IMG/VR virus record: IMGVR_UViG_2923302340_000001
Direction: 5' to 3' (one strand)
DNA from: a virus
Taxonomy: Duplodnaviria; Heunggongvirae; Uroviricota; Caudoviricetes
Length of the DNA: 48,684 bases
The position numbers were made by a program, and so were the translations under genes. Within the stretch, counting starts at the first letter, position 1, and the number at the start of each line of letters is the position of its first letter. A model generated the notes under the pieces. That model was given only the letters and a program-made list of their open reading frames with translations. It had not been told where the DNA came from and ran no database searches. This document shows, in pieces, positions 5,767 through 31,291 of this stretch.

Positions 5767-7656
5767 GTGAGTAAATTATTATTTACGATGACTGACGCCG
5801 GGCGTCAGGAGTTGGTTAATGCCAACAAAACAGGAACAAATAAAGTTGAGATTGTTTCTGTTGGTTTAGGTGGTAGATATTATGTCACGTCAACCTCACA
5901 AACAAATATAACAAACGAAATAAAACGACTTACCACAATAGGTGGCAAAGTTGTTTCCCCTGATACAATTCATGTAACGGCGAAGGATGATAGTAAAGAT
6001 GAGTATGTTGTCCATACAATAGGATTGTATACAAATAAGGGAACGTTGTTTGCTGTATACTCGCAAGAACAAGCAATAATAAATAAAGCATCATCTACTA
6101 TTGCTTTAATATCAAGTGACATAGCAATCAAGACTCTTGATACTAAAAATATTATATTTGGTGATATTGAGTTTATTAATCCTCCCGCGACCGAAACTGT
6201 TGTTGGGGTTGCAAGATTTGCTAATGAACAAGAAATTGATGCAGGTACAGATGATTCCCTTGCTGTTTCAGCAAAGCGGCTTAAGCAAGCCATTGTGAAA
6301 CATGAGCAATCACGTAATCATCCTGATGCAACTTTAACCTCAAAAGGCTTTGTTCAACTTAGCAGCGCCACCAATAGCACGTCTGAAACGCTTGCTGCGA
6401 CGCCTAAGGCTGTTAAGGCAGCATATGACCTGGCTAACGCTAAATACACCGCACAGGACGCTACCACTGCGCGGAAAGGGATTGTTCAGCTCAGTAGTGC
6501 CACCAATAGCACGTCTGAAAAGCTAGCAGCAACACCAAAGGCTGTTAAGGAAGCGTATGATCTTGCGGCCGGAAAGGCTCCTTCCAATCACACGCATTCG
6601 TGGGATCAGATTACAAATGTGCCTGTAGCTTCACTGACAGTAAGAGGAATCACTCAGCTTAGTAGCGCCACCAATAGCACGTCTGAAAAGCTAGCAGCAA
6701 CACCAAAGGCTGTTAAGGAAGCGTATGATCTTGCGGCCGGAAAGGCTCCTTCCAATCACACGCATTCGTGGGATCAGATTACAAATGTGCCTGTAGCTTC
6801 ACTGACAGTAAGAGGAATCACTCAGCTTAGTAGCGCCACCAACAGCACGTCTGAAACTCTGGCTGCGACACCGAAAGCTGTTAAGGTGGTAATGGATGAA
6901 ACAAAAAAGAAAGCCCCCCTCAACAGTCCGGCTCTGACTGGAACGCCAACAACGCCAACAGCACCAAATGGGACTAATAATACTCAGATCGCAAGCACAG
7001 CTTTCGTTATGGCTGCGATTTCCGCACTTGTAGACTCGTCACCTGACGCACTGAATACGCTGAACGAGCTGGCCGCCGCGCTTGGTAATGATCCAAATTT
7101 TGCAACCACCATGACTAACGCGCTTGCGGGTAAGCAACCGAAGGATGCCACCCTGACGGCGCTGGCAGGACTTGCTACAGCAGCAGATAAACTCCCTTAT
7201 TTTACAGGGGCAGATCGTGCCGCGTTAACCGCACTGACAAGTGTTGGACGTGCCATTCTTAGTAAGCCCAGCACACAGGGGGTTCTTGATTACCTTGGTT
7301 TACGAGAAGCGGCAAAACGGGATGTAGGGACAGGAGCAAATCAGATACCTGATATGAGTTTATTCGCGTCAATTAATACCGTAACGGCTGCTGCGCAAAA
7401 ATTTCCGTCTGGATTAATTTTACAGTGTGGCCAGTTGAATGGTGCCCCGAATGTATCTTCAACATACGGGATGAGGTTCCCGATGACGTTCTCAAGAGTC
7501 ATTGCTGTCGTAGTTACATTGAACGTTACTGGCGCGGCAGGGCAGCCGACTGTATCGGCGACAAATGTCCAGAACACTGGATTTGATATTACAGTGTCGC
7601 CCGGTTCAGGATATGGTTCATCTGCTGATGCGTATTACATTGCAATGGGATATTAA
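5767..7656 (+). CDS. tail fibre protein (constant N-terminal part plus currently expressed C-terminal cassette)
   Basis: GTG start; 629 aa; repeated ...[26 protein letters not shown]... fibre repeats; hix-like crossover site inside the coding region at 7283..7308. Confidence 0.8.
6487..6822 (+). repeat. near-perfect tandem duplication (2 x 168 bp) inside tail-fibre gene
   Basis: 6487..6654 and 6655..6822 differ at 2 positions; flanked by diverged copies of the same 56-codon unit. Confidence 0.9.
7283..7308 (+). other. candidate recombinase crossover site (hix/gix-like) inside fibre gene
   Basis: TTCTTGATTACC TT GGTTTACGAGAA: 26 bp with imperfect dyad, close to Hin hixL consensus as recalled. 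Confidence 0.5.
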
Positions 7657-8080: not shown

Positions 8081-8654
8081 CATCCGGCGCTGTGCTGGTA
8101 TCTGTTGCCGTCACCGCGTCAATGTAATCCAGCACAGCGTTAAGGCGGGTTGTTTCTGCCTGCGTCAGCTTTCGCCCAGCCTGTAATTTCAGTTGAATCA
8201 GACTAATGGAAGCCATTGCAGCATCAATCAGTGACTGGCGCTGTGCTTCTGCCGCTTCTACTGCGGCACCGTGTTGTGCCTCAACATCCGTCACCCATTT
8301 CTCACCATCCCATTTATCGTATGGCGTTAACGGGGCGATAGTGGTTGTATTTTCAGGATAGTCGCCCGGTGCAGTTATTTCTTTGGCGTCACCCGTTTCG
8401 GTGTTATAGACGATTTCACCACGATGGTCTGGCACATATTCCCATGAATTTAAATCCACAGAACGGCAGATTGCATAACCAGCCTTATGTATGCCGGGGG
8501 CATCTAAACAAGAATATGCCGGAATACCAACACCTACCGCAAGATATTCAGTTGATGCGGAAATATATTCCTTTGTCTCACTGTCATAGTTGTAAACGAT
8601 GATGTTTCCTTCCTGTACGGCAATAAGTTCATTATTCAATATCGCGCTATTCAT
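8052..8654 (-). CDS. tail fibre assembly chaperone, alternative cassette
   Basis: 200 aa; C-terminus ...[24 protein letters not shown]; convergent with 7661..8080. Confidence 0.7.
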
Positions 8655-9104
8655 TATGCAGCTCTCACAATATAGTTAAATGCAATATTTCTCGGACGGG
8701 TTTCACGCCCACCAGGAATTTGAAAAGCATTAGCGGTTGTAGATCCGCCTTCCTGATTAATTCCTGTTGTATAAATACCACTCACACCATTTTGCAATGC
8801 AAATACTGTTGCGGTTCCAGGCCCACCACCGGGCCCAAAATACTTAAGTTCGAACTTTTTAATATCATCACTCTGAATATTCAATAAAGCACGTCCTGTA
8901 TCAATGCCGCGTCCATCATCCCAGCCACGAATAAACTCACCGCGTAAATCAGGAAGTTTTCCTGACGGGTATGCTTTGGCAAGAGTTGGATATTTCACCT
9001 TATCAAAGGCAGCACCGTTGCATTTCAGCCAGCCCGTTGGAGGGGTTGCGGAGGGCCACGGAACAGGTACACCAACAGGCAGCGCCGAACCTTCCCCAAA
9101 CCAA
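8654..9104 (-). CDS. promoterless alternative tail-fibre C-terminal cassette B
   Basis: Shares a 232-bp direct repeat (8881..9112 vs 9367..9599) including the crossover-like site with cassette A; no ATG; motif KYPTLAKAYPSGKLPDLRGEFIRGWDDGRGID; ends ...RPRNIAFNYIVRAA. Confidence 0.45.
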
Positions 9105-9116
9105 CGTTTTTATGCA
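9091..9116 (-). other. candidate crossover site (cassette B)
   Basis: Plus strand CTTCCCCAAACC AA CGTTTTTATGCA; minus strand carries the TTGGTTT core in inverted orientation relative to 7283..7308; overlaps stop of cassette A. Confidence 0.4.
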
Positions 9117-9640
9117 GCCCTCACGATAAAGTTAAATGCAATATTTCGTGGACGGGTTTCACTCCCGCCAGTATTACCGATACTCCCTCGTGAATGAAGT
9201 GTCGGTGATGGAATCAGAGTTCCTCCGGCATCGGCAGCATCAAGCCCCCGGCCTTGCGTATATGCTCTTCTGAAGATTGTCGCCAGTTCCCATTCCTCTT
9301 TTGAATCATACCCATCGTTGGCAACAACAATATGGCGGTGTTTTTCCAGCATCCCAGTCTGAATGCTCAATAAAGCACGTCCTGCATCAATACCACGCCC
9401 GTCATCCCAGCCACGAATAAACTCACCGCGTAAATCAGGAAGTTTTCCTGACGGGTATGCTTTGGCAAGAGTTGGATATTTCACCTTATCAAAGGCAGCA
9501 CCGTTGCATTTCAGCCAGCCCGTTGGAGGGGTTGCGGAGGGCCACGGAACAGGTACACCAACAGGCAGCGCCGAACCTTCCCCCAAACCAACGTTTTTAA
9601 CTTCGTGAACTGAGCTATCTAATAGCATTTTCACTAACAT
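9110..9640 (-). CDS. alternative tail-fibre C-terminal cassette A
   Basis: 176-aa ORF; codons downstream of the crossover-like site are in the frame needed for fusion to the fibre constant part (...DYL | GLGEGSALPVGVPVPW...). Confidence 0.5.
   Translation of the reverse strand: MLVKMLLDSSVHEVKNVGLGEGSALPVGVPVPWPSATPPTGWLKCNGAAFDKVKYPTLAKAYPSGKLPDLRGEFIRGWDDGRGIDAGRALLSIQTGMLEKHRHIVVANDGYDSKEEWELATIFRRAYTQGRGLDAADAGGTLIPSPTLHSRGSIGNTGGSETRPRNIAFNFIVRAA
9578..9603 (-). other. candidate crossover site (cassette A)
   Basis: Plus strand TTCCCCCAAACC AA CGTTTTTAACTT; minus strand AAGTTAAAAACG TT GGTTTGGGGGAA; 45 bp from invertase start. Confidence 0.45.
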
Positions 9641-9647
9641 AAACGGG

Positions 9648-10217
9648 ATGCTTTTTATGCAAATTGGCTATATTCGCGTATCAACAAATGACCAGAATAC
9701 AGATTTACAACGTAATGCTCTGAACTGTGCAGGATGTGAGCTGATTTTTGAGGATAAAATCAGTGGAACGAAGTCAGCCAGACCGGGATTGAAAAAACTG
9801 CTCAGAACGTTATCAGAAGGAGACACGCTGGTTGTCTGGAAGCTGGACAGGTTGGGTAGAAGCATGAAACACCTGATCACTCTTATTGAGGAACTACGGG
9901 AAAAAGGTGTTAATTTCCGTAGTCTGACGGACAGCATTGATACATCAACCCCTATGGGGCGTTTCTTTTTTCACGTCATGGGGGCTTTAGCAGAAATGGA
10001 GCGTGAATTAATTGTTGAGAGAACATTGGCTGGACTGGCAGCAGCTCGCGCACAGGGCCGCATTGGTGGGCGCCGCCCGAAGCTGACAAAAGAACAGCAT
10101 GAGCAAATAGCAAGGCTGATTAAAAACGGTCACGAGAGGAAACAACTGGCGATCATTTACGACATTGGTATATCAACGATTTATCGCTATCACCCTGTAG
10201 GAAGTGATTCAGCTTAA
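9648..10217 (+). CDS. DNA invertase, Hin/Gin/Cin/Pin-type serine recombinase
   Basis: N-terminus (M)QIGYIRVSTNDQNTDLQRNAL, ...TLVVWKLDRLGRSMKHL..., ...GRFFFHVMGALAEMERELIVERT..., C-terminal HTH; alternative ATG at 9657. Confidence 0.9.
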   Translation: MLFMQIGYIRVSTNDQNTDLQRNALNCAGCELIFEDKISGTKSARPGLKKLLRTLSEGDTLVVWKLDRLGRSMKHLITLIEELREKGVNFRSLTDSIDTSTPMGRFFFHVMGALAEMERELIVERTLAGLAAARAQGRIGGRRPKLTKEQHEQIARLIKNGHERKQLAIIYDIGISTIYRYHPVGSDSA

Positions 10218-11895: not shown

Positions 11896-12082
11896 CTTTG
11901 CAGGAGGAAGGGGCGAGCATTATCAATAAACGTCGATAAATACGCACACAGTAGCCATCAGAACGCGATAAAACGTAAGAAACATCATTTCCTATTAGAC
12001 ATAGAAAACTTGTCTTATACGCAATGTAGTAAATTTCTATTGCCACATAGGAAAAGATTTCCTATCATCGTAGATATAATAA

Positions 12083-12382
12083 ATGGAGATGGTTATGGAT
12101 AAAGATACTGTTTTAAAAATGTTGAATCCGGCTTGTTTAAAAAAAGCGGATGAATGGGAATCTCCTACATGTGGAGAAGTTCGGGCAGTCATTGGCCTGA
12201 CCGGAATGAGCGGCTCGCAGTTGGCCAAAAAACTTGGCTTAAAAGATAGTCGCAATGTTCGCAACTGGCAGATGTTAAAGGAGTCCACATCCAGATCCAG
12301 CATTCCGTATGCAGCCTGGGCGCTGCTGTGTTACTTCGCTGGATTAGGGTTAATCTTCATTGATAACAAAACAGATGTTTGA
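12083..12382 (+). CDS. hypothetical protein with HTH-like segment and hydrophobic C-terminus
   Basis: 99 aa; ...GLTGMSGSQLAKKLGL... HTH-like; C-terminal ...AAWALLCYFAGLGLIF. Confidence 0.3.
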   Translation: MEMVMDKDTVLKMLNPACLKKADEWESPTCGEVRAVIGLTGMSGSQLAKKLGLKDSRNVRNWQMLKESTSRSSIPYAAWALLCYFAGLGLIFIDNKTDV

Positions 12383-12903: not shown

Positions 12904-12913
12904 AGGATTGAGC

Positions 12914-13261
12914 ATGTGGACGGTACTTTTTAGCCAGCGATTTGACGACTGGCTAAATGAGCAAGAAGACGCTCTTCAGGAAAAGGTTTTGGCTGATTTG
13001 AAAAAGCTACAGGTTTACGGACCTGAGTTACCCAGGCCATATGCCGATACCGTAAAAGGTTCTCGGTACAAAAATATGAAAGAGCTTCGCGTTCAGTTTT
13101 CTGGCCGTCCGATAAGAGCCTTTTATGCGTTCGATCCGATTCGCCGGGCCATCGTTCTTTGTGCAGGAGACAAAAGTAACGATAAGCGGTTTTATGAAAA
13201 ACTGGTGCGTATAGCTGAGGATGAGTTTGCAGCACATCTGAACACACTGGAGAGCAAGTAA
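12914..13261 (+). CDS. type II toxin, RelE/HigB-like (addiction-module killer)
   Basis: ...GSRYKNMKELRVQFSGRPIRAFYAFDPIRRAIVLCAGDK...; toxin-first order; stop overlaps antitoxin ATG (TAATG). Confidence 0.55.
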   Translation: MWTVLFSQRFDDWLNEQEDALQEKVLADLKKLQVYGPELPRPYADTVKGSRYKNMKELRVQFSGRPIRAFYAFDPIRRAIVLCAGDKSNDKRFYEKLVRIAEDEFAAHLNTLESK

Positions 13262-13560
13262 TGAGAACATTAGATGAGGTGATTGCCAGCCGTTCACCTG
13301 AAAGCCAGGCGCGAATTAAAGAAATGGCAGATGAGATGATTCTTGAGGTCGGCTTGCAGATGATGCGTGAAGAACTCCAGTTATCACAAAAACAGGTTGC
13401 TGAGGCGATGGGTATAAGCCAGCCAGCAGTAACAAAGCTGGAGCAGCGCGGAAATGATTTAAAGCTGGCGACATTAAAGCGTTACGTTGAAGCTATGGGA
13501 GGCAAATTAAGCCTGGATGTTGAGCTTCCTACAGGAAAGCGAGTAGCGTTCCATGTCTAA
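13261..13560 (+). CDS. HigA-like HTH antitoxin (XRE family)
   Basis: 99 aa; HTH ...SQKQVAEAMGISQPAVTKLE... Confidence 0.55.
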   Translation: MRTLDEVIASRSPESQARIKEMADEMILEVGLQMMREELQLSQKQVAEAMGISQPAVTKLEQRGNDLKLATLKRYVEAMGGKLSLDVELPTGKRVAFHV

Positions 13561-13568
13561 CATAATGT

Positions 13569-13587
13569 AAGGCCCCATTGGGGCCTT
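13569..13587. terminator. bidirectional intrinsic terminator
   Basis: AAGGCCCC-ATT-GGGGCCTT between convergent genes. Confidence 0.5.
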
Positions 13588-13593
13588 ACTTAT

Positions 13594-13878
13594 TTACTTA
13601 CCATTTTTGCGGTTTTTTTCGGACTTCATAAGCTGGCTAACGCGCCCTGGTGTGATATTTAACATGCGGCTTACTTCAGCTTGTGATCCTACTTCCTCTA
13701 CTAGCGATGCAACATAGCGAGATTTTCCTGAGGAGGTTAATCCATTATATGTTGCTCGTACGACTTTTCCCTGAGCTTCTCTCATATCAACTAATGCCTG
13801 AGCAACCTGCTCAAAACCTTTAATTGTTACTTCTGTTAATGCTCGAATAGCATCAATTTCAGATTTTTGTTTAGCCAT
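13594..13878 (-). CDS. small HTH DNA-binding protein
   Basis: ATG at 13878 (MAKQKSEIDA...); ...SQAEVSRMLNITPGRVSQLM... HTH. Confidence 0.4.
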   Translation of the reverse strand: MAKQKSEIDAIRALTEVTIKGFEQVAQALVDMREAQGKVVRATYNGLTSSGKSRYVASLVEEVGSQAEVSRMLNITPGRVSQLMKSEKNRKNGK

Positions 13879-13925
13879 TTGGCACCTCAAATTGTTTAAA
13901 ATGTGTTAATTACAAAATTCAGCCG

Positions 13926-13944
13926 ATACCATGTTCAATGGTAT
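13926..13944. promoter_or_regulatory. palindrome ATACCAT-GTTCA-ATGGTAT upstream of 13594..13878
   Basis: 7-bp perfect arms in the promoter region of the minus-strand HTH gene. Confidence 0.3.
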
Positions 13945-14034
13945 AGCATTGCTGAAATGTCTTTTTCAAGACCTTGCCAATAAGCTAAACAAAAATGTTT
14001 AATGCTTCGCCTAAAAAAACACCAGTTACTATTA

Positions 14035-14145
14035 TTTATATAATTATAGATTTATATAAAAAGTGCTTTACATGTGGGAAAAAATTTCCTAAGGTTATAC
14101 CCGAAACCGAGCGATACCCGCCCTGGTTAAACCGGAGATAACCCG
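14035..14145 (+). promoter_or_regulatory. repeated promoter/leader cassette, copy 1
   Basis: ~110 bp nearly identical to 23415..23525 and 30666..30775: AT palindrome, TTTATATAAA, TTTACA-17 nt-TAAGGT, conserved leader ACCCGAAACCGAGCGATACCCGCCCTGGTTAAACCGGAGA, then ATG. Confidence 0.45.
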
Positions 14146-14526
14146 ATGAGCATGATTAAAATCCGCAAAAACGCTTTCCTTAAAATTCAAACTATCCTGG
14201 CTGGTTCTGTTGGCGTGATTTGCCGTTCTTCCTCAAGCCGCATCGATGACGGCTACGATGATGAGTATCGTGTGTCCTCATGCGATGAGGCTTTAACCTG
14301 GCTGAAGGAGAATCAGGAACGTGCCCAGGTATATCTGGAAACAGAGAACGGCAATCAGATGCTGCGTATTAGCGGTCGTTATGGATTTGAAACTACATTC
14401 ATGGCCTATTTTAATCAGGCTTACTTTGACAAGGAGTTGGCTTGGTACACTGATCGCATGAGCAAAAGCGAGCCAGCCCCGATTACACCGCCGAACAATA
14501 AACCATTTTTATTCCTCGTTAAGTAA
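14146..14526 (+). CDS. hypothetical protein (first gene behind cassette copy 1)
   Basis: 126 aa; no motif recognised. Confidence 0.35.
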   Translation: MSMIKIRKNAFLKIQTILAGSVGVICRSSSSRIDDGYDDEYRVSSCDEALTWLKENQERAQVYLETENGNQMLRISGRYGFETTFMAYFNQAYFDKELAWYTDRMSKSEPAPITPPNNKPFLFLVK

Positions 14527-14534
14527 ACACAATG

Positions 14535-14561
14535 CGCAAAGTGTCATTTTGACACTTTGCG
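14535..14561. promoter_or_regulatory. 27-bp palindrome CGCAAAGTGTCA-TTT-TGACACTTTGCG
   Basis: 12-bp perfect arms, between 14146..14526 and the HTH gene. Confidence 0.4.
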
Positions 14562-14589: not shown

Positions 14590-14862
14590 ATGACGGGTTA
14601 TGAATTGAAATTATGGCGTCGTGGGATGAACTGGACGCAGGAGCGAGCCGCCGAAGAATTTGGGATATCGTTGGCTACATATAAGCGATATGAGAAGGGG
14701 GAGCCGCCGAGGGTCATTGAGATGGCCATTCGCGTTCTGTCGTTTGACGATATGGTGAAGGATCTTTCACACCTTGATAAAGACGCGATTCTGTTAAGGC
14801 TGCAAACCCTTGTATGGGAAAAGGTTAAAGTGTCGTCAGAATTGGAACAAGGGATCAAATGA
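14590..14862 (+). CDS. XRE-family HTH protein
   Basis: AGGAGG-type RBS upstream of ATG 14590; ...WTQERAAEEFGISLATYKRYEKG... Confidence 0.45.
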   Translation: MTGYELKLWRRGMNWTQERAAEEFGISLATYKRYEKGEPPRVIEMAIRVLSFDDMVKDLSHLDKDAILLRLQTLVWEKVKVSSELEQGIK

Positions 14863-16144: not shown

Positions 16145-16169
16145 GCGCCCAAATCGGGCGCTTTGTTTT
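16145..16169. terminator. intrinsic terminator
   Basis: GCGCCC-AAATC-GGGCGC followed by TTTGTTTT. Confidence 0.5.
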
Positions 16170-17310
16170 ATGGTTTTGCACCTGCGGCCAGTTTATCCGC
16201 AGATATCTTTATCAGTTCCTGTAGTGTCCTGGCTGGTAGGTTTGCATCCAGTACGCTGAGTATGCTGTTGTGATCTGCCTGGTCGACTACTTTGCCTGTC
16301 GGTGGTAGTAGCTTGAGCTGAGGATTCAGGTTTTCGTCAAAGCTGATCAGTGCTCTGGCGTTTCTGAGCAGATCAAGAAGTAAGGCTGATATCACATCAT
16401 CTTTAGTCATTGTTGGTAGATTTAGTGCCGCTTTAGTTTTCTCCGTCGCCTTGTCAAACTCTTTGATTAGTGTCTTGCGGTAGTTTGGTTCCGTTAATAG
16501 CCGATGATGTTCTGTTGCCGTTCGGATAATCTTTGTTTCCTGATACAGTCGGTTGTATAGCATTCGCTCGTATTCTGCCTTTAACACGCTGCTGATAGCG
16601 TTAAAGGCTTCAATGTAGGCCAGCTTGATATCCTTCACGCCTGGACCGTCGATACTTTCCATGAGCAAGGTAAATCCGTCTTTTGTCATGCGATAGATTG
16701 TTATTTCGCGGTCGCTTCCTTCCAGCGGTCGTTGCTCTTTAAAGAAATGACGTGCCGCAGCTGTACGAGGAATGCGTAACGCATCGATGGCCATAACGAT
16801 GGAATTGTTTGTGGTGCTGAATGCCTGGGCTACATCGGCTGAGGTTGTGAGTGGCTCGTTGTTGCACACCTTAACGTAATACATTGGTTTGGCGTTGAGT
16901 GTATCGACAACCTCACGAGCATTGTTTGGCGAGACGGTTACGGTCGCGGCCGTTTGCGCGTTCTGGTTGAAATAGCAGTCTTCCAGCCGTTCGAATACAT
17001 CCCACGCCTGATCGGTTTCGAGCATTTTAGCGTGACGTGCAGCCCCGCGTTCGGTCCAGAGAATTAGGGAGCGGGCATTTTTACCAACTAACCCGATTGT
17101 TTCGGGTCTGTTCTTGAACTCGCGTAATTCGTTTTTTTCAATTTTAAAGTAATGCTTTCCGGCTACGAATCGCGTCGTGTTGTTCAGAAAGTTATCAGAA
17201 ATGTTTTTGATTTTCGTTCCGTATAACTGCGCCAGAAGTTCACTAGTGATAACGGGGATCTGGTTATGCAGGATAGGCTGTAGGGTGTTAACGGTCGGAA
17301 GCGTTTTCAT
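16168..17310 (-). CDS. antirepressor-like protein (KilA-N/ORF6N-type N-terminal domain plus Rha-like domain)
   Basis: 380 aa; N-terminus ...PVITSELLAQLYGTKIKNISDNFLNNTTRFVAGKHYF...; domain calls by recollection. Confidence 0.55.
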   Translation of the reverse strand: MKTLPTVNTLQPILHNQIPVITSELLAQLYGTKIKNISDNFLNNTTRFVAGKHYFKIEKNELREFKNRPETIGLVGKNARSLILWTERGAARHAKMLETDQAWDVFERLEDCYFNQNAQTAATVTVSPNNAREVVDTLNAKPMYYVKVCNNEPLTTSADVAQAFSTTNNSIVMAIDALRIPRTAAARHFFKEQRPLEGSDREITIYRMTKDGFTLLMESIDGPGVKDIKLAYIEAFNAISSVLKAEYERMLYNRLYQETKIIRTATEHHRLLTEPNYRKTLIKEFDKATEKTKAALNLPTMTKDDVISALLLDLLRNARALISFDENLNPQLKLLPPTGKVVDQADHNSILSVLDANLPARTLQELIKISADKLAAGAKP

Positions 17311-17498
17311 TTTGCACCTCCCATAACTACTTTGGTTACGAGGGAGATTTTTGCGTCAGAAACAGCGTTATCGTTGCTGGCGATGCGCATAGCTTCGCGC
17401 TCGATGATTTCAGCCAGGCGGAATTTATCGGCGTATGAGGCTTTCTTGAGAAGGATCTTTACGAGGTTGACGTAATAGTCATGGGGTAAGTTTGTCAT
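17307..17498 (-). CDS. small protein translationally coupled upstream of antirepressor
   Basis: 63 aa; ATGA overlap with 16168..17310. Confidence 0.3.
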   Translation of the reverse strand: MTNLPHDYYVNLVKILLKKASYADKFRLAEIIEREAMRIASNDNAVSDAKISLVTKVVMGGAK

Positions 17499-17662
17499 GG
17501 TGATAGTTCCCTTAAAGGTTAAGGATACTCACCACCGTCTGGTTCCAATCATTGGGTGGTGAGACGTACAGGGTTGGAACTACCGGTCACCATGGAATCC
17601 GGCGAGTCTTACGACTCCCCCGCACGCCCCACCATAATTTGGGTGTAGCAGTGCTTTACGCA

Positions 17663-17683
17663 TAAAAAAACCGCTAACGCGGT
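17663..17683 (-). terminator. candidate intrinsic terminator (minus strand)
   Basis: ACCGC-TAAC-GCGGT followed on the minus strand by T7. Confidence 0.4.
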
Positions 17684-17828
17684 ATGCGCCATGATGATTA
17701 TCGGGGTTCCAATCCCGACCGTAGATTTTGCTACGGCTCGGAAAGTGTCCACCAATGGCGCATTCATGTCAATACGGCGGGATTTTAACAGAGACAACCA
17801 CATAGCGTGGGTTTATTGGTAGGCAGAA

Positions 17829-17857: not shown

Positions 17858-18234
17858 CTTTCGTGCTGATCGGATTCGCGGTCCTTTCAGCATTACGTTG
17901 TTGTATAAATACAACCACGCAAGCACAAACAGCGATCATATTCTTACCCAACTGAATAAAATTGTCCAAATAAATTTGGTTTATTAGAGCACAAAAGCGA
18001 GTGATTTTTGTGGTGTGTATTTAAGTTGATGAAAAACAATATGTTTTTATCCCTTCATTATGAAGGGGCTGCGGTGTAACATTACGCGGGGCCTTTTCGC
18101 CGATTCGCAACCGGGCACCGACTTTCAGGAAAGGATTATCCACTTGCCGTACCACGCAGGCACAAACAGCGTGCTTGCTCTCGCGTCATTTTCGTCGGTG
18201 GGGATGCCGTGAAACGGCCTGTAAGGGCCACACA

Positions 18235-18357
18235 ATGAAAAAATACTACATGTGTATTTTTATCGTTGTTACTGGAGCTTTGTTTACGCCACATGGGGAG
18301 GGTTGGAAGATTACTGATAACGCTCTGAATGTGACGATAAACATTAGCAGCAAGTAG
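18235..18357 (+). CDS. small hydrophobic peptide (40 aa)
   Basis: MKKYYMCIFIVVTGALF...; followed by a strong terminator. Confidence 0.2.
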   Translation: MKKYYMCIFIVVTGALFTPHGEGWKITDNALNVTINISSK

Positions 18358-18362
18358 CGATT

Positions 18363-18386
18363 AGGCCCCTTCGGGGGCTTTTTTTA
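18363..18386 (+). terminator. intrinsic terminator
   Basis: AGGCCCC-TTCG-GGGGC followed by T7. Confidence 0.6.
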
Positions 18387-18607: not shown

Positions 18608-18856
18608 TTACTTCTGGTTGTATTGAGCCTTGAGTAACTCAAAAGATTTTGTCAGCACTTCTTTCAATGACATATCCATTGAGCTGGCGAACGTTTTGTA
18701 CTCGCGTTTAAATTCAGGGTCGACGTTAAACGCCATCTGTGCCCCACCTGATTTGGTTCTGGTCGGCGTTTCAGTCGGGTCGAAAACCTGCGGTTGTTCG
18801 ATTGATGGCGGTACGCCTTTGCTGTTCTTTTTCGGTGGTTTTGATGGTGCGGCCAT
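18608..18856 (-). CDS. ParG-like ribbon-helix-helix partition/centromere-binding protein
   Basis: 82 aa; basic Pro-rich N-terminus; C-terminal ...FNVDPEFKREYKTFASSMDMSLKEVLTKSFELL... RHH-like; directly downstream of ParA. Confidence 0.45.
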   Translation of the reverse strand: MAAPSKPPKKNSKGVPPSIEQPQVFDPTETPTRTKSGGAQMAFNVDPEFKREYKTFASSMDMSLKEVLTKSFELLKAQYNQK

Positions 18857-18899
18857 GTGTATCCCCTTTTATATAAATCTATAAAACTATAATTATATA

Positions 18900-19574: not shown

Positions 19575-19674
19575 GATTATATAATTCTATAAATCTATAT
19601 TTATAGAATGAGGTAAGCATAACCAACTTTTGAGCGGATGAAAAGCACTTTATATAATTATATAAATCTATAAT
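19575..19674. promoter_or_regulatory. partition-operon promoter with two AT-rich palindromic boxes (candidate centromere/operator)
   Basis: GATTATATAATTCTATAAATCTATATTTATAGAAT (19575..19609) and AAAAGCACTTTATATAATTATATAAATCTATAAT (19641..19674) upstream of parA. Confidence 0.4.
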
Positions 19675-19702: not shown

Positions 19703-20077
19703 TCAGAGGTCAGCTATTGTTGATATCAGTTGATTTGCTAGCTGTCGCTGTTTACGTGAGAGGGTTAGAGCAGCTTCTGAGCGGTCGCTAAGAGGGGTGT
19801 TTTCATCGAGAATCATGAGGCATACAGAAATAATAGCCCTGTTATATGCCATCAATGGCTGGCACAGCTTCGATATCGCTGGCACATCGTATTGTAAGGC
19901 CGTTTTGAGGCAGACTTTTTGTTCTGATGCCAGATGAAGGATAGATTCTATCCAGTCGATATCTTTCTCATTATCAATGAGTTGGCATAACATACACTCA
20001 ATCGCTATGTTCAACGCTTGGATTTCGATTCCAGCAGTGATCAGAGTTTCGTTTTTATTGGCTGTATGTAATTCCAT
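19703..20077 (-). CDS. hypothetical protein
   Basis: 124-aa ORF with hairpin GCGGGC-TGGC-GCCCGC just downstream. Confidence 0.3.
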   Translation of the reverse strand: MELHTANKNETLITAGIEIQALNIAIECMLCQLIDNEKDIDWIESILHLASEQKVCLKTALQYDVPAISKLCQPLMAYNRAIISVCLMILDENTPLSDRSEAALTLSRKQRQLANQLISTIADL

Positions 20078-20832: not shown

Positions 20833-20869
20833 TTCTCATCAATCGTGAATGGGGGGTTATTTATACATT

Positions 20870-20986
20870 ACCACATTTAGTGGTTTTCACACGGCAAGAC
20901 GAGAGCTAGACCACAAATAGAAGGTTATTTTTTGTTTTCCCATTGAAAAACTCACGATTTGTGGTTTTAATACCACATATCGTGGT
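20870..20986. promoter_or_regulatory. cI/cro divergent control region with ACCAC-N5-GTGGT operators
   Basis: Perfect sites 20870..20884 (ACCACATTTAGTGGT) and 20972..20986 (ACCACATATCGTGGT); degenerate sites 20910..20924 and 20951..20965. Confidence 0.45.
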
Positions 20987-21004
20987 TTAACTGGAGTTAG
21001 TTAA

Positions 21005-23355: not shown

Positions 23356-23414
23356 AAGTGTCATTTTGAGCTGTTTTGGTGATTTGTAGACACCGGGAAT
23401 ATCGGAAAATCTAT

Positions 23415-23525
23415 AAATATATAATTATATATTTATATAAAAAGTGCTTTACAGGTGGGAAAAAATTTCCTAAGGTTATACCCAAAACCGAGCGATACCC
23501 GCCCTGGTTAAACCGGAGAAATCTG
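23415..23525 (+). promoter_or_regulatory. repeated promoter/leader cassette, copy 2
   Basis: TATATAATTATATA (23418..23431), TTTATATAAA, TTTACAGGTGGG..., conserved leader, ATG at 23526. Confidence 0.45.
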
Positions 23526-24593
23526 ATGAATAAACAAGTAATTATTTCTGACTGGATCAACAACCCTAACAGCCTGTTGAGCACTGATACTGGCTATAGA
23601 TTACGTCATGTTAATGGCCGTATGGTCAAAAGCGATGAGCACGAAACCTTTTTCGTTGTTGAAGACGATGGACGTCTTTATGAGGATGGTCACTCTTATG
23701 AATCCCAAACAGGTTGTATCCCTGCAGAGTTGGTAGACGTAACAGAAAAGCTGCGCAAAGCATGGCTTGAACAGCAGCAGCGCGGAGATGATTACGTAAA
23801 TACCTATCAGGAGCGCCAGAACGCGCGTCTTGCCCGATATATTGCTCGTGCAGAAAAAGCCAGAAAAGAAGGTGCGGTGGCGCATAAGCGAGCGCATGAA
23901 CTGTTGGATGTGATCCCGTTAGGCCAGCCGATTTTAGTTGACCATTATAGCGCGAAAGGCCATCGCCGCCGTTTGTCTAAAGCTGATGCGTTATTCAGAA
24001 AATCGTTTGTTGAGTGTGAAAGCAGAGCATCGTACTACGAAAGCAAAGCCGCAGGTGTCGGCCGTAATGGAGTTTCGTCTGATGATCCTGATGCGCTATT
24101 TAAGTTGCTTCGTAAGCTGCAAGGCTGCATGAAGTCACACATCAAAATGAAGGCCGCAAATAAGGCTATTCGCAAATACAAAAAAGACCAATTACAGCAG
24201 CTTTCCGCATTAATTGACCTTGAGTTTACTGAAAGCGAAGCCAAAGGGTTACTCGCCGGAGATTTCTGTGGGCACATTGGCTTCCCTTCATACTCACTGA
24301 GTAACAATAATGCCGAAATCAAACGACTACAGAGCCGTATTAAGGAGCTTGAATCGGTCAAGTCTGTAACAGGAGCACAGCGCGAAGAATACGACGGCTT
24401 TTCTATGGAGATAGATCCAGAGGATAACCGTATCCTGTTTTATTTCCCTGGCAAACCAGAGGCAAACATTCGTTCGCTGCTTAAATCACGCGCCTTTAAG
24501 TGGAGTCCAACCCGTAATGCATGGGTTCGCAAGATTACTCCAAACGCCCTGGCTGATGCCCGATATCTGAAAGAATCGCTATTGAAAGCCTGA
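23526..24593 (+). CDS. DUF3560-like protein (tentative)
   Basis: ATG 23526 directly after conserved leader (track start 23376 would translate the promoter cassette); 355 aa. Confidence 0.4.
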   Translation: MNKQVIISDWINNPNSLLSTDTGYRLRHVNGRMVKSDEHETFFVVEDDGRLYEDGHSYESQTGCIPAELVDVTEKLRKAWLEQQQRGDDYVNTYQERQNARLARYIARAEKARKEGAVAHKRAHELLDVIPLGQPILVDHYSAKGHRRRLSKADALFRKSFVECESRASYYESKAAGVGRNGVSSDDPDALFKLLRKLQGCMKSHIKMKAANKAIRKYKKDQLQQLSALIDLEFTESEAKGLLAGDFCGHIGFPSYSLSNNNAEIKRLQSRIKELESVKSVTGAQREEYDGFSMEIDPEDNRILFYFPGKPEANIRSLLKSRAFKWSPTRNAWVRKITPNALADARYLKESLLKA

Positions 24594-24624: not shown

Positions 24625-24650
24625 TATATAGAATTATATATTTATATAAA
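24625..24650. promoter_or_regulatory. AT-rich palindromic box upstream of 24671 gene
   Basis: TATATAGAATTATATA + TTTATATAAA. Confidence 0.35.
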
Positions 24651-24670
24651 TGTATAAGGACGCCTCGACA

Positions 24671-24952
24671 ATGAAACGCAAAATTATTAACCCCCAAGAT
24701 GTGATTAATTTCCTGACCGATCACCCATGTTCAAAAGTGGACGTAATCGCGGAACACATTGGTGTGTCGCAGAACTCTATGCGTTGCAGACTGAGAAGCA
24801 TGGTTGCCGAAGGACAGATAACAACCAGGAAAATAAATGGTTGCCTGTACTACTCCGCTAAACCGGAATTGCCATTTGGCATGAATCCTAACTCCATGTT
24901 GTTTAACACCTTATTAGCCAAAGTTAAGCCGTTGAGAGGGGCTGTGGCATGA
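24671..24952 (+). CDS. small DNA-binding-like protein (winged helix?)
   Basis: AAGGA 11 nt upstream of ATG 24671; ...VDVIAEHIGVSQNSMRCRLRSMVAEGQI... Confidence 0.3.
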   Translation: MKRKIINPQDVINFLTDHPCSKVDVIAEHIGVSQNSMRCRLRSMVAEGQITTRKINGCLYYSAKPELPFGMNPNSMLFNTLLAKVKPLRGAVA

Positions 24953-29399: not shown

Positions 29400-29523
29400 T
29401 ACCGCCTGTGATTGGGTAAAGCCCATCTACCTGACTGATCACGACATCGATGTTATGGACCGCCAGACAAAGAAAGATATTCTGGCTCATAACAGGGCAT
29501 GGGAAATCAACTGCCGAAAGTAA
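29314..29523 (+). CDS. Rz1-like o-spanin lipoprotein
   Basis: Overlaps Rz-like gene in another frame; lipobox-like LIASC. Confidence 0.5.
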   Translation: MYSRVLTIWLMTMLIASCGSRGSVPVVVDTACDWVKPIYLTDHDIDVMDRQTKKDILAHNRAWEINCRK

Positions 29524-29554
29524 TATATATTTCTATAATTATATAAATATATAG
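29522..29554. promoter_or_regulatory. AT-rich palindromic box downstream of lysis genes
   Basis: AATATATATTTCTATAATTATATAAATATATAG. Confidence 0.3.
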
Positions 29555-29600
29555 TTACAACATTCTATGCGCTTTTCTCATGGGCGCACGCATCAACCAT

Positions 29601-29692: not shown

Positions 29693-29768
29693 GGCCCCTT
29701 AGCTTAGTGGTTAGAGCAGGCGACTCATAATCGCACGGTCATCGGTTCAAATCCGGTAGGGGCCACCA
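29693..29768 (+). tRNA. tRNA with anticodon CAU (Met, or lysidine-modified Ile2 type)
   Basis: 76-nt cloverleaf: acceptor stem GGCCCCU/AGGGGCC, T-loop TTCAAAT, anticodon loop CTCATAA, encoded 3' CCA. Confidence 0.85.
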
Positions 29769-30076: not shown

Positions 30077-30664
30077 ATGGAGGCAATTGCATTGTTTAAT
30101 CTGATTTATGCAGATCCCCCCTGGGAATACAAAGATAAGTGTAAGGATGGGAATCGTGGAGCTGGTTTTAAGTATCCAACGATGAAAGCTGAGGATATTG
30201 CTCGTATTCCTGTCTGGCAGCTTGCTAATCCTGAATCGTGTTTGTTGGCCATGTGGTGGGTTCCGACTCAGCCAGAAGAAGCGTTGCTGGTGGTGAAAGC
30301 ATGGGGATTCAGGCTTATGACCATGAAGGGCTTCACATGGAACAAATGTGGTAGCCGACAACCAGATAAGCTGGTGATGGGGATGGGGCATATGACTCGT
30401 GCAAACAGTGAAGATTGCTTGTTTGCGGTAAAAGGCAAATTGCCGACCCGCCTTGATGCGGGGATCATTCAGTCGTTTACATCGCCTCGTCTGGAGCATT
30501 CTCGGAAGCCTGATGTGGTTCGTGACAAGCTGGTAAGGCTGTTAGGTGATGTTCCTCGTATTGAGCTGTTTGCTCGCGGTGATTTACCTGATGGTTGGCA
30601 TGGCTGGGGCAACCAGTGCAATGGAGGTATCCAGTTGCATGATGCTCTCTGGCAAGTGGCATAG
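30077..30664 (+). CDS. DNA adenine methyltransferase, MT-A70-like
   Basis: N-terminal ...IYADPPWEYKDK... (DPPW motif). Confidence 0.65.
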   Translation: MEAIALFNLIYADPPWEYKDKCKDGNRGAGFKYPTMKAEDIARIPVWQLANPESCLLAMWWVPTQPEEALLVVKAWGFRLMTMKGFTWNKCGSRQPDKLVMGMGHMTRANSEDCLFAVKGKLPTRLDAGIIQSFTSPRLEHSRKPDVVRDKLVRLLGDVPRIELFARGDLPDGWHGWGNQCNGGIQLHDALWQVA

Positions 30665-30665
30665 A

Positions 30666-30775
30666 ATTATATAATTATAGGTTTATATAAAAAGTGCTTT
30701 ACAAGTGGGAAAAAATTTCCTAAGGTTATACCCGAAACCGAGCGATACCCGCCCTGGTTAAACCGGAGAAATCTG
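30666..30775 (+). promoter_or_regulatory. repeated promoter/leader cassette, copy 3
   Basis: ATTATATAATTATAG, TTTATATAAA, TTTACAAGTGGG..., conserved leader, ATG at 30776. Confidence 0.45.
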
Positions 30776-31045
30776 ATGAAAGTACAAGACCGTGAAGTAG
30801 TAAAAAACCTCCTGCAATACCTGACCTCAAAAAACCTGACGGGCAGCGTTGAGTTCCGTGAAGCGTTAAAACATTTCAACGTCACTACGGTTTATCGTTG
30901 GGAAAACAAACATTCTGAAAGACCGTATGTGGTGGATGTTTTTGCGCCTGATATTGAGTGCGGTTTTGAGCGTCATTCGTTCAAGGAGAAACATTCTGCT
31001 GATTTTTTTTGTGAGGTTGTATGTGCGGCAGGAGATGATGAGTGA
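30776..31045 (+). CDS. hypothetical protein (first gene behind cassette copy 3)
   Basis: 89 aa; acidic Cys-containing C-terminus. Confidence 0.3.
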   Translation: MKVQDREVVKNLLQYLTSKNLTGSVEFREALKHFNVTTVYRWENKHSERPYVVDVFAPDIECGFERHSFKEKHSADFFCEVVCAAGDDE

Positions 31046-31242
31046 TGCGTATTTCCTTCAAACGTGCGACTGAGCAGCAACGCAAAGAGTTCCTGGCTGA
31101 TGATGTAGCGGCCGTTTATGACCTCATGAAAGAGGTTGTGGAATCAGGGAACTACACGGCGGCAAAGATGCTTAAACTGCAATTCTTGCTGGGCGACCTG
31201 AAATACAAATCCGAAGTTGTCGCCGGACGACGCGAGCATTAA
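31042..31242 (+). CDS. hypothetical protein
   Basis: 66 aa; ATGA overlap. Confidence 0.3.
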   Translation: MMRISFKRATEQQRKEFLADDVAAVYDLMKEVVESGNYTAAKMLKLQFLLGDLKYKSEVVAGRREH

Positions 31243-31265
31243 ACCGTAACGATAACGAACAACGA

Positions 31266-31291
31266 GCCTCGGCAATTGCCGGGGCTTTTTT
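31266..31291 (+). terminator. intrinsic terminator
   Basis: GCCTCGGC-AATT-GCCGGGGC followed by T6. Confidence 0.6.

Follow-up and report, generated by a model that had tools for sequence, protein, structure and literature searches.

Repeated promoter-leader cassettes of a tailed phage-plasmid resemble the KorC (kil-kor) regulon of IncP plasmids

KorC-family proteins are described as repressors (PMC7414963, PMC7314908). KorC of RP4 controls klcA, kleA and kleC (PMC12365149), and klcA of RP4 is induced approximately 120- to 220-fold in new transconjugants, a case of zygotic induction (PMC7314908). KorC of RA3 (IncU) is a small, global repressor of several promoters (PMC7414963), and the KorC site of pOXA-48 (IncL) lies between the -35 and -10 elements of its own operon, which suggests autoregulation (PMC12365149). 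The arrangement proposed here for the window (the whole stretch of DNA analysed, 48,684 nucleotides) resembles RA3 in having one small repressor for several promoters and pOXA-48 in its apparent autoregulation, but in RA3 the repressor acts on operons for replication, stability and transfer, only one site is predicted in pOXA-48 rather than four, and neither repeated leaders nor TATA arrays are reported for either plasmid.

Global repression by partition proteins is known for KorB (ParB) of IncP-1, Omega of pSM19035 and ParG of TP228, of which Omega and ParG are ribbon-helix-helix proteins that act on tandem short repeats (7 bp for Omega, 8-bp spacing for ParG). The CUP repeats of pKM101 (IncN) are conserved promoter elements before unrelated leading-region genes, including antirestriction genes, under a plasmid repressor; the window likewise has repeated promoter elements before unrelated genes, a likeness by description only, and its regulator family is different. 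In the phage-plasmids P1 (C1) and N15 (SopB centromeres), one maintenance or immunity protein silences genes from many dispersed sites; these proteins and sites are not those of the window, whose cI-type repressor has its own unrelated operators.

The window is a myovirus-type phage-plasmid of complete size (48.7 kb), encoding an IncFII-type repA, a small parA, a cI-type repressor and a C4 RNA/antirepressor module similar to immI of P1. This module (16168-17737, minus strand) comprises an IsrK-like RNA (17664-17737), a C4 antisense RNA (17552-17639), a 63-aa ORF (17307-17498) and a 380-aa antirepressor of the Rha/ORF6N type (16168-17310). Between it and the partition genes lies a full-length ryfA-like RNA (18087-18385, plus strand, 135 bits) that may be a small-toxin locus. 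The closest kin of the window are plasmids of approximately 48 kb in E. coli, E. fergusonii, E. albertii, Klebsiella and Salmonella, together with the Yersinia phages vB_YpM_39/41/44, for which a literature search gave no matches; the pSLy3 group was rejected as a set of relatives, being a different, SSU5-type family. The cassette described below is carried by 64 PLSDB plasmids, almost always at three places per record. A protein-pattern scan of genome contigs found no relatives, and the 120 matches of a gapped DNA-pattern scan of genome contigs are all attributed to chance because none of them has the operator upstream. Two IMG/VR contigs (L019 and L020) start and stop within the cassette, which indicates that a 120-bp repeat present three times has the practical effect of breaking short-read assemblies of these plasmids.

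Three copies of the cassette are present on the plus strand, where the original prediction had placed them (Table 1), and a repeat search recovers them as one 127-nt family (14031-14157, 23412-23538 and 30662-30788). A 40-nt string from the leader occurs three times with 0-1 mismatch, versus 0 expected (100 shuffles). The reported near-identity of the copies is borne out by alignment (92.9-95.5% pairwise from the AT array to the ATG), and each copy ends, as had been noted, at the start codon of an ORF (14146, 23526 and 30776). The parts follow one another in a constant order: three to four TATA units, the -35 sequence TTTACA, the palindrome TGGGAAAAAATTTCCTA, the -10 sequence TAAGGT, and a leader of 57 nt with GGAG before the ATG, in agreement with the promoter-like element first proposed (TTTACA, 17 nt, TAAGGT). 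At cassette 1, AAAAAGTGC stands directly before the -35 (14067-14072), two bases separate the -35 from the palindrome, the last TA of TGGGAAAAAATTTCCTA supplies the first two bases of the -10 (14090-14095), and transcription is predicted to start near 14102. What had been called an AT-rich palindrome (TTTATATAAA) is instead a tandem array of three to four 8-bp units (WWTMTATA), and the 17-bp dyad TGGGAAAAAATTTCCTA inside the 17-nt promoter spacer had been missed; this dyad is an imperfect palindrome because its left half-site in the window cassettes reads TGGG in place of TAGG. The dyad recurs in a fourth promoter at 12040-12068, which has neither an array nor the shared leader.

Table 1. Positions of cassettes, regulator, cargo, array and partition features in the window.
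Feature	Position	Strand	Basis
Regulator promoter: TTGCCA, 17 nt, TATCAT; perfect palindrome TAGGAAAAGATTTCCTA at 12048-12064, in the cassette register	12040..12068	+	
KorC homologue, 95 aa from ATG 12095, XRE-like HTH; proposed repressor of four promoters	12095..12382	+	
Cassette 1, TATA array of 3 units directly upstream of the -35	14035..14060	+	sequence
Cassette 1, core promoter: -35 14067-72, operator TGGGAAAAAATTTCCTA 14075-91, -10 14090-95, 17-nt spacer	14067..14095	+	promoter inferred from sequence
Cassette 1, leader: hairpin AACCG.GCG(AUACC)CGC..UGGUU 14105-14128, GGAG 14134-37, ATG 14146	14096..14148	+	
126-aa cargo gene, phrog_8090	14146..14526	+	
XRE HTH gene (ATG 14590) after the 126-aa gene	14590..14862	+	
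82-aa protein downstream of parA; candidate partition adaptor for the TATA arrays	18608..18856	-	
TATA array, 4 units, between parA and the 82-aa gene	18868..18899	.	
Small ParA ATPase, 222 aa	18900..19568	-	
parA promoter region; arrays 19576-609 and 19649-74 flank the promoter; -35 context AAGTGCTTTTCA (19639-50, minus strand) matches the cassettes	19576..19674	-	
Cassette 2: array 23408-41, -35 23448-53, operator 23456-72, -10 23471-76, hairpin 23486-23509, GGAG 23515-18, ATG 23526	23408..23528	+	
355-aa DUF3560 cargo gene	23526..24593	+	
TATA array without cassette, directly before the MarR-like 100-aa gene	24625..24656	.	
TATA array without cassette, between the lysis genes and a tRNA (29693-29765)	29522..29555	.	
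Cassette 3: array 30660-91, -35 30698-703, operator 30706-22, -10 30721-26, hairpin 30736-59, GGAG 30765-68, ATG 30776	30660..30778	+	
89-aa and 66-aa cargo genes, then terminator-like hairpin 31264-31287	30776..31287	+	

The gene behind the fourth promoter encodes a homologue of KorC. Its identity is 50% (E 9e-21) with the depositor-annotated korC product of the IncP-1 plasmid pRSB223 and 41% with a protein annotated as "KorC protein" on a further IncP plasmid; in an IncP-1 backbone of the order trfA-klcA-klcB-X-kleE-korA-incC-korB, the occupant of the korC slot shares 52% with it. Another KorC-slot homologue (P0025, 42% identical to the window protein) matches genes annotated korC by tblastn, and some members of the family are named XRE/YiaG-type regulators by their sources. 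The palindrome of the window matches a KorC-type operator: in the IncP loci, TAGGGCATTTTGCCCTA or TAGGACAAAATGTCCTA is located 2-3 nt past a TTGACA -35 and overlaps the -10 ahead of klcA, kleA and DUF905 genes, and the four window operators (14075-14091, 23456-23472 and 30706-30722, all TGGGAAAAAATTTCCTA, and TAGGAAAAGATTTCCTA at the regulator gene) have the register of the IncP sites. Salmonella relatives, whose regulator is 65% identical, also have four operators each: the three cassettes carry TAGGAAAATATTTCCTA, and the promoter of the regulator gene carries TAGGAAATATTTTCCTA. In distant phage-plasmids, with a regulator of 36-38% identity, TAGGACTAAAAGTCCTA or TAGGAATAAAAGTCCTA occurs three to four times, and the regulator gene is within the operon of the first cassette. 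At least five regulator lineages thus have each their own operator sequence, with four distinct half-sites, uniform across the copies of an element, and the differences between lineages are as expected if the operator is read by the KorC homologue. The architecture recurs in every phage-plasmid lineage examined, with half-sites specific to the lineage, in support of the original view that the cassettes form one co-regulated set.

Comparison with the KorC/OC branch of IncP-1 (RK2/RP4, pRSB223 and pAOVO02; promoters klcAp, kleAp and kleCp) extends beyond regulators that are 41-52% identical to the one in the window. On both sides, a 17-bp palindrome of the type TAGG-N9-CCTA begins 2-3 nt after the -35 and overlaps the -10; promoter and leader together form two to three near-identical cassettes in front of small genes that are unrelated (pRSB223, pAOVO02, pYKAM033 and an E. 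coli IncP plasmid each have two to three nearly identical units of operator, -10 and approximately 56-nt leader to the ATG); and the leader is homologous, with the same hairpin position, ACCGGAGA ribosome site and operator-to-ATG distance. The earlier remark that this was not recognised as a described regulon therefore has to be revised, as regulator, operator, spacer position and leader are all homologous to those of the IncP KorC (kil-kor) regulon. The differences are that the window is a tailed phage-plasmid and IncP-1 a conjugative plasmid, that the half-site is GGAAA in the window versus GGGCA in IncP, that tandem 8-bp TATA arrays occupy the place of the KorA/KorB operators upstream of the -35, that the cargo genes are not homologues of klcA, klcB or kle genes, and that the regulator has its own promoter, whereas in IncP it is at the end of the klcA operon. 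In a limited literature search, no paper was found that makes a substantive link between KorC and phage-plasmids. On a contig with type IV pilus/conjugation genes (L060), a KorC-type operator and the same type of leader accompany a 103-aa gene and a KorC homologue (9576-9958); the KorC module therefore moves between plasmid types.

Between the window and the Salmonella relatives, the cassettes are 84-88% identical and the adjacent ORF starts 62-76% identical, and within one genome the copies of the cassette are 91-100% identical, all of them sharing lineage-specific substitutions. By these comparisons the copies evolve in concert, as expected if all of them must match one repressor; gene conversion may be partly responsible for the high identity within genomes, beside selection.

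The preferred reading, to which we give a probability of about 75%, is that the repeats are sigma-70 promoter cassettes of the KorC (kil-kor) type with the operator in the spacer and the KorC homologue as their common repressor. By this proposal, the 17-bp palindromic operator takes up the 17-nt spacer and reaches into the first two bases of the -10; with the KorC homologue bound at all four sites, RNA polymerase would be blocked in the established plasmid-prophage. The homologue would probably limit its own synthesis, since its promoter has the same operator, likewise in register. A newly entered cell would contain no repressor, and the three cassettes would fire together and briefly there, until KorC accumulates; the genes expressed in this predicted burst would be those for the 126-aa protein, the DUF3560 protein and the 89-aa and 66-aa proteins, and these establishment genes would thereby undergo a "zygotic induction" like that measured in RP4 for klcA and the kle genes.

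Other regulators had been suggested or came into consideration. HigA, an antitoxin encoded near the fourth dyad by a higBA-like pair, was rejected as the dyad binder because the gene right behind the fourth promoter is the KorC homologue, higBA being the next pair (12908-13560). The XRE HTH protein encoded behind the 126-aa gene was rejected as cassette regulator: it has a palindrome of its own that differs from the cassette dyad, and it is missing from the cassettes of the distant lineage. The palindrome in question (14535-14561, between the 126-aa gene and the XRE HTH gene) is perfect, with 12-bp arms (CGCAAAGTGTCA-TTT-TGACACTTTGCG), and contains TTGACA; it may serve as a terminator or as operator/promoter of the HTH gene itself. 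A contribution of cI, also considered in the original prediction, is not supported, the cI operators (of the type ACCACA..GTGGT) being different and absent from the cassettes, and nothing was found that implicates a Q-like protein. Repeated ACCACA-N-GTGGT dyads, presumably these cI operators and unrelated to the cassettes, are located at 20840-21000, between the cI-type repressor gene and a divergent early operon. Immediately before the first cassette, the distant lineage has a divergent gene for a 103-aa winged-helix-like protein (L033 664-975 and L035 700-1011, minus strand); the window has no counterpart at that place.

All cargo cassettes of the phage-plasmids have two to four in-phase TATA units upstream of the -35, whereas all KorC promoters of IncP have none; the regulator's own promoter has none or one. 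The window contains 38 matches to a two-unit array versus 0.15 expected, and eight arrays of 8-bp units in total: those of the three cassettes and those at 18868-18899, 19576-19609, 19649-19674, 24625-24656 and 29522-29555. Arrays flank parA in two lineages and are confined to lineages with the pair of a small ParA and an 82-84-aa protein, which is also present in distant lineages. In the window, the 82-aa protein has a disordered basic N-terminus and a strand-helix-helix C-terminus (in the AlphaFold model, residues 1-39 are disordered, followed by an extended segment and helices 47-59 and 62-81), a predicted fold compatible with ribbon-helix-helix; it has no Pfam, PDB-sequence or Foldseek match. 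To judge from the positions of the arrays, they may be binding sites of this partition protein as a co-repressor, which would be the simplest explanation of their occurrence both at the cassettes and at the parA promoter, and the suggestion that the ParG-like protein might act on the AT box is plausible on the same grounds. Bound to arrays abutting the -35, the 82-aa protein would add co-repression to that by KorC, the role of KorB/KorA in IncP. As with KorB, Omega and ParG, the putative adaptor sites stand by the -35 of several promoters and at the protein's own par operon, and the short tandem units are reminiscent of Omega and ParG, but the unit WWTMTATA is different and the 82-aa protein is a candidate binder.

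It is possible, if somewhat doubtful, that the arrays have another function, as UP-element-like or curved DNA that boosts the promoter, or as sites for the 124-aa protein (19703-20077), the MarR-like protein (24650-24952) or a host nucleoid protein. They are AT-rich and located at about -38 to -70, the zone of UP elements, one of them directly precedes the MarR-like gene, and the ribbon-helix-helix fold of the 82-aa protein is putative; yet the units keep a strict 8-bp phase, recur without a cassette promoter in the space separating parA from the 82-aa gene and beyond the lysis genes, flank the parA promoter on both sides, as is typical of autoregulated small-ParA systems, and are found only where the ParA and 82-84-aa pair is present. 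The arrays at 24625-24656 and 29522-29555 could be extra centromere-like or silencing sites.

The leaders of all sources align, and among 41 distinct cassettes, drawn from all sources with a filter that allowed 40-70 nt, the operator ends 56-58 nt before the ATG. The 3' arm of the hairpin in the window leader (GCCCUGGU) and the ACCGGAGA ribosome site are common to the IncP-1 leaders. The named hairpin was examined for covariation in 23 distinct leaders of the sister type (IncP and distant phage-plasmids): its seven core pairs are paired in 23/23 leaders, a count inflated by the derivation of the structure from the same related sequences; compensatory changes occur at two pairs (GC 10, AU 7 and GU 6 at one, CG 20 and UA 3 at the other), G-U pairs are numerous, and the covariation score is 0.329 versus 0.236 +/- 0.017 in shuffles (0/500 reach 0.329). 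When the partners are slid by 1-3 columns as a control, 19-40% of cells are paired. The leader type of the window itself hardly varies; the Salmonella changes are in the loop, the hairpin is in a slightly shifted register relative to the sister type, and the z-score of its fold is about -2.1 to -2.4. RNAalifold returned no structure for a mixed alignment of both types because their 3' arms stand one column apart. With respect to RNA, the original proposal of a shared cis-acting leader thus receives support from a conserved hairpin with compensatory changes in the sister leader type. The hairpin would begin approximately 3 nt from the predicted 5' end of the transcript and, with the fixed ribosome site, would probably set mRNA stability or translation.

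That the leader is maintained only by gene conversion and a common ribosome site, and that the hairpin has no function of its own, seems unlikely. The copies within a genome do share lineage-specific substitutions, the hairpin loop included, and the energy of the fold is only moderately better than that of shuffles (z about -2); but the leader can be aligned between IncP-1 and the phage-plasmids despite regulators that are only approximately 40-50% identical, the distance from operator to ATG is fixed, and the stem is 100% paired, with compensatory and G-U changes, while the loop varies. Still less likely is a post-transcriptional regulon in which the leader is the target of a factor acting in trans, for example an RNA-binding translational repressor or a small RNA encoded at the C4/IsrK-like locus. 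The leader is common to all cargo cassettes and absent from the regulator's own promoter, and the element encodes C4-like, IsrK-like and ryfA-like RNAs, but no antisense match to the leader of 12 nt or longer was found in C4, IsrK, ryfA or elsewhere in the window, matches of 9-11 nt fall outside the RNA genes of the window, IncP plasmids have the leader without these RNAs, and there is no Rfam match at gathering score in the window, nor at E<=1 in 14000-14200. No description of a conserved leader hairpin in KorC regulons was found in a limited literature search. We tentatively suggest, as the more speculative part of this interpretation, that the hairpin of approximately 24 nt and the fixed ribosome site of KorC leaders could together be an undescribed cis-regulatory RNA that tunes "first-minutes" genes via mRNA stability or translation, and that a partition adaptor could have replaced KorA/KorB as co-repressor, which would couple assembly of the partition complex to the shut-off of an establishment/anti-defence set.

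Late-promoter activators compensate for poor core elements, and since the -10 box TAAGGT is weak (3/6), an activator requirement is conceivable for the cassettes. That the spacer dyad is an activator site, and the cassettes middle or late lytic promoters under a phage-encoded activator, is nevertheless very improbable: cassettes 2 and 3 are indeed upstream of the lysis and packaging genes and co-directional with them, but the dyad matches the operator of a family of proteins that are repressors in the literature (PMC7414963, PMC7314908) and overlaps both core elements, the distant lineages keep its position together with good -10 boxes (TATTAT, TATAAT), and terminator-like hairpins follow the short cargo operons.

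The genes downstream of the cassettes had been described as unrelated, and they are indeed unrelated to each other; they are, however, syntenic and conserved in the Salmonella relatives, which have homologues of the 126-aa protein, the DUF3560 protein and the 89-aa protein, so that the cargo is not freely variable. Comparison with Pfam, NCBIfam and PHROGs gave no function for the cargo proteins, and BLASTP against klcA, klcB, kleA, kleE, kleF, DUF905 and DUF2688 gave no matches. The 126-aa protein has a confident alpha/beta model (pLDDT 82.6), for which no fold match was found in the PDB. The "possibly anti-defence" role offered in the original prediction is an analogy with klcA of IncP, as is a role in establishment, because the cargo has no similarity to klc/kle proteins, Pfam or PDB entries. 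A segment of the window (13562-14034, with a 98-aa minus-strand ORF inside) is missing from the E. coli plasmid NZ_CP020518 and from a Salmonella relative, and homology restarts exactly at the left edge of cassette 1. The possibility that the cassettes are hot spots of cargo swapping was dropped because this single clear junction is insufficient.

By the homologies described above, a widespread family of phage-plasmids of approximately 48 kb in Escherichia, Salmonella, Klebsiella and Yersinia has borrowed a regulatory module, consisting of repressor, operator, promoter geometry and 5' leader, from broad-host-range conjugative plasmids. The KorC regulon is the known part; the phage-plasmid setting, the TATA arrays in place of KorA/KorB operators, the other cargo and the conserved leader hairpin are what differs. 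The KorC-type reading also names a concrete regulator for three operons and predicts their expression immediately after entry, which makes them testable candidates for establishment or anti-defence genes.

The tail-fibre gene contains four tandem repeats of 92-168 nt (6343-6902), and duplicated, inverted tail-fibre-assembly segments (8654-10217) adjoin a gene for a 189-aa recombinase, an arrangement that looks like an invertible host-range switch.
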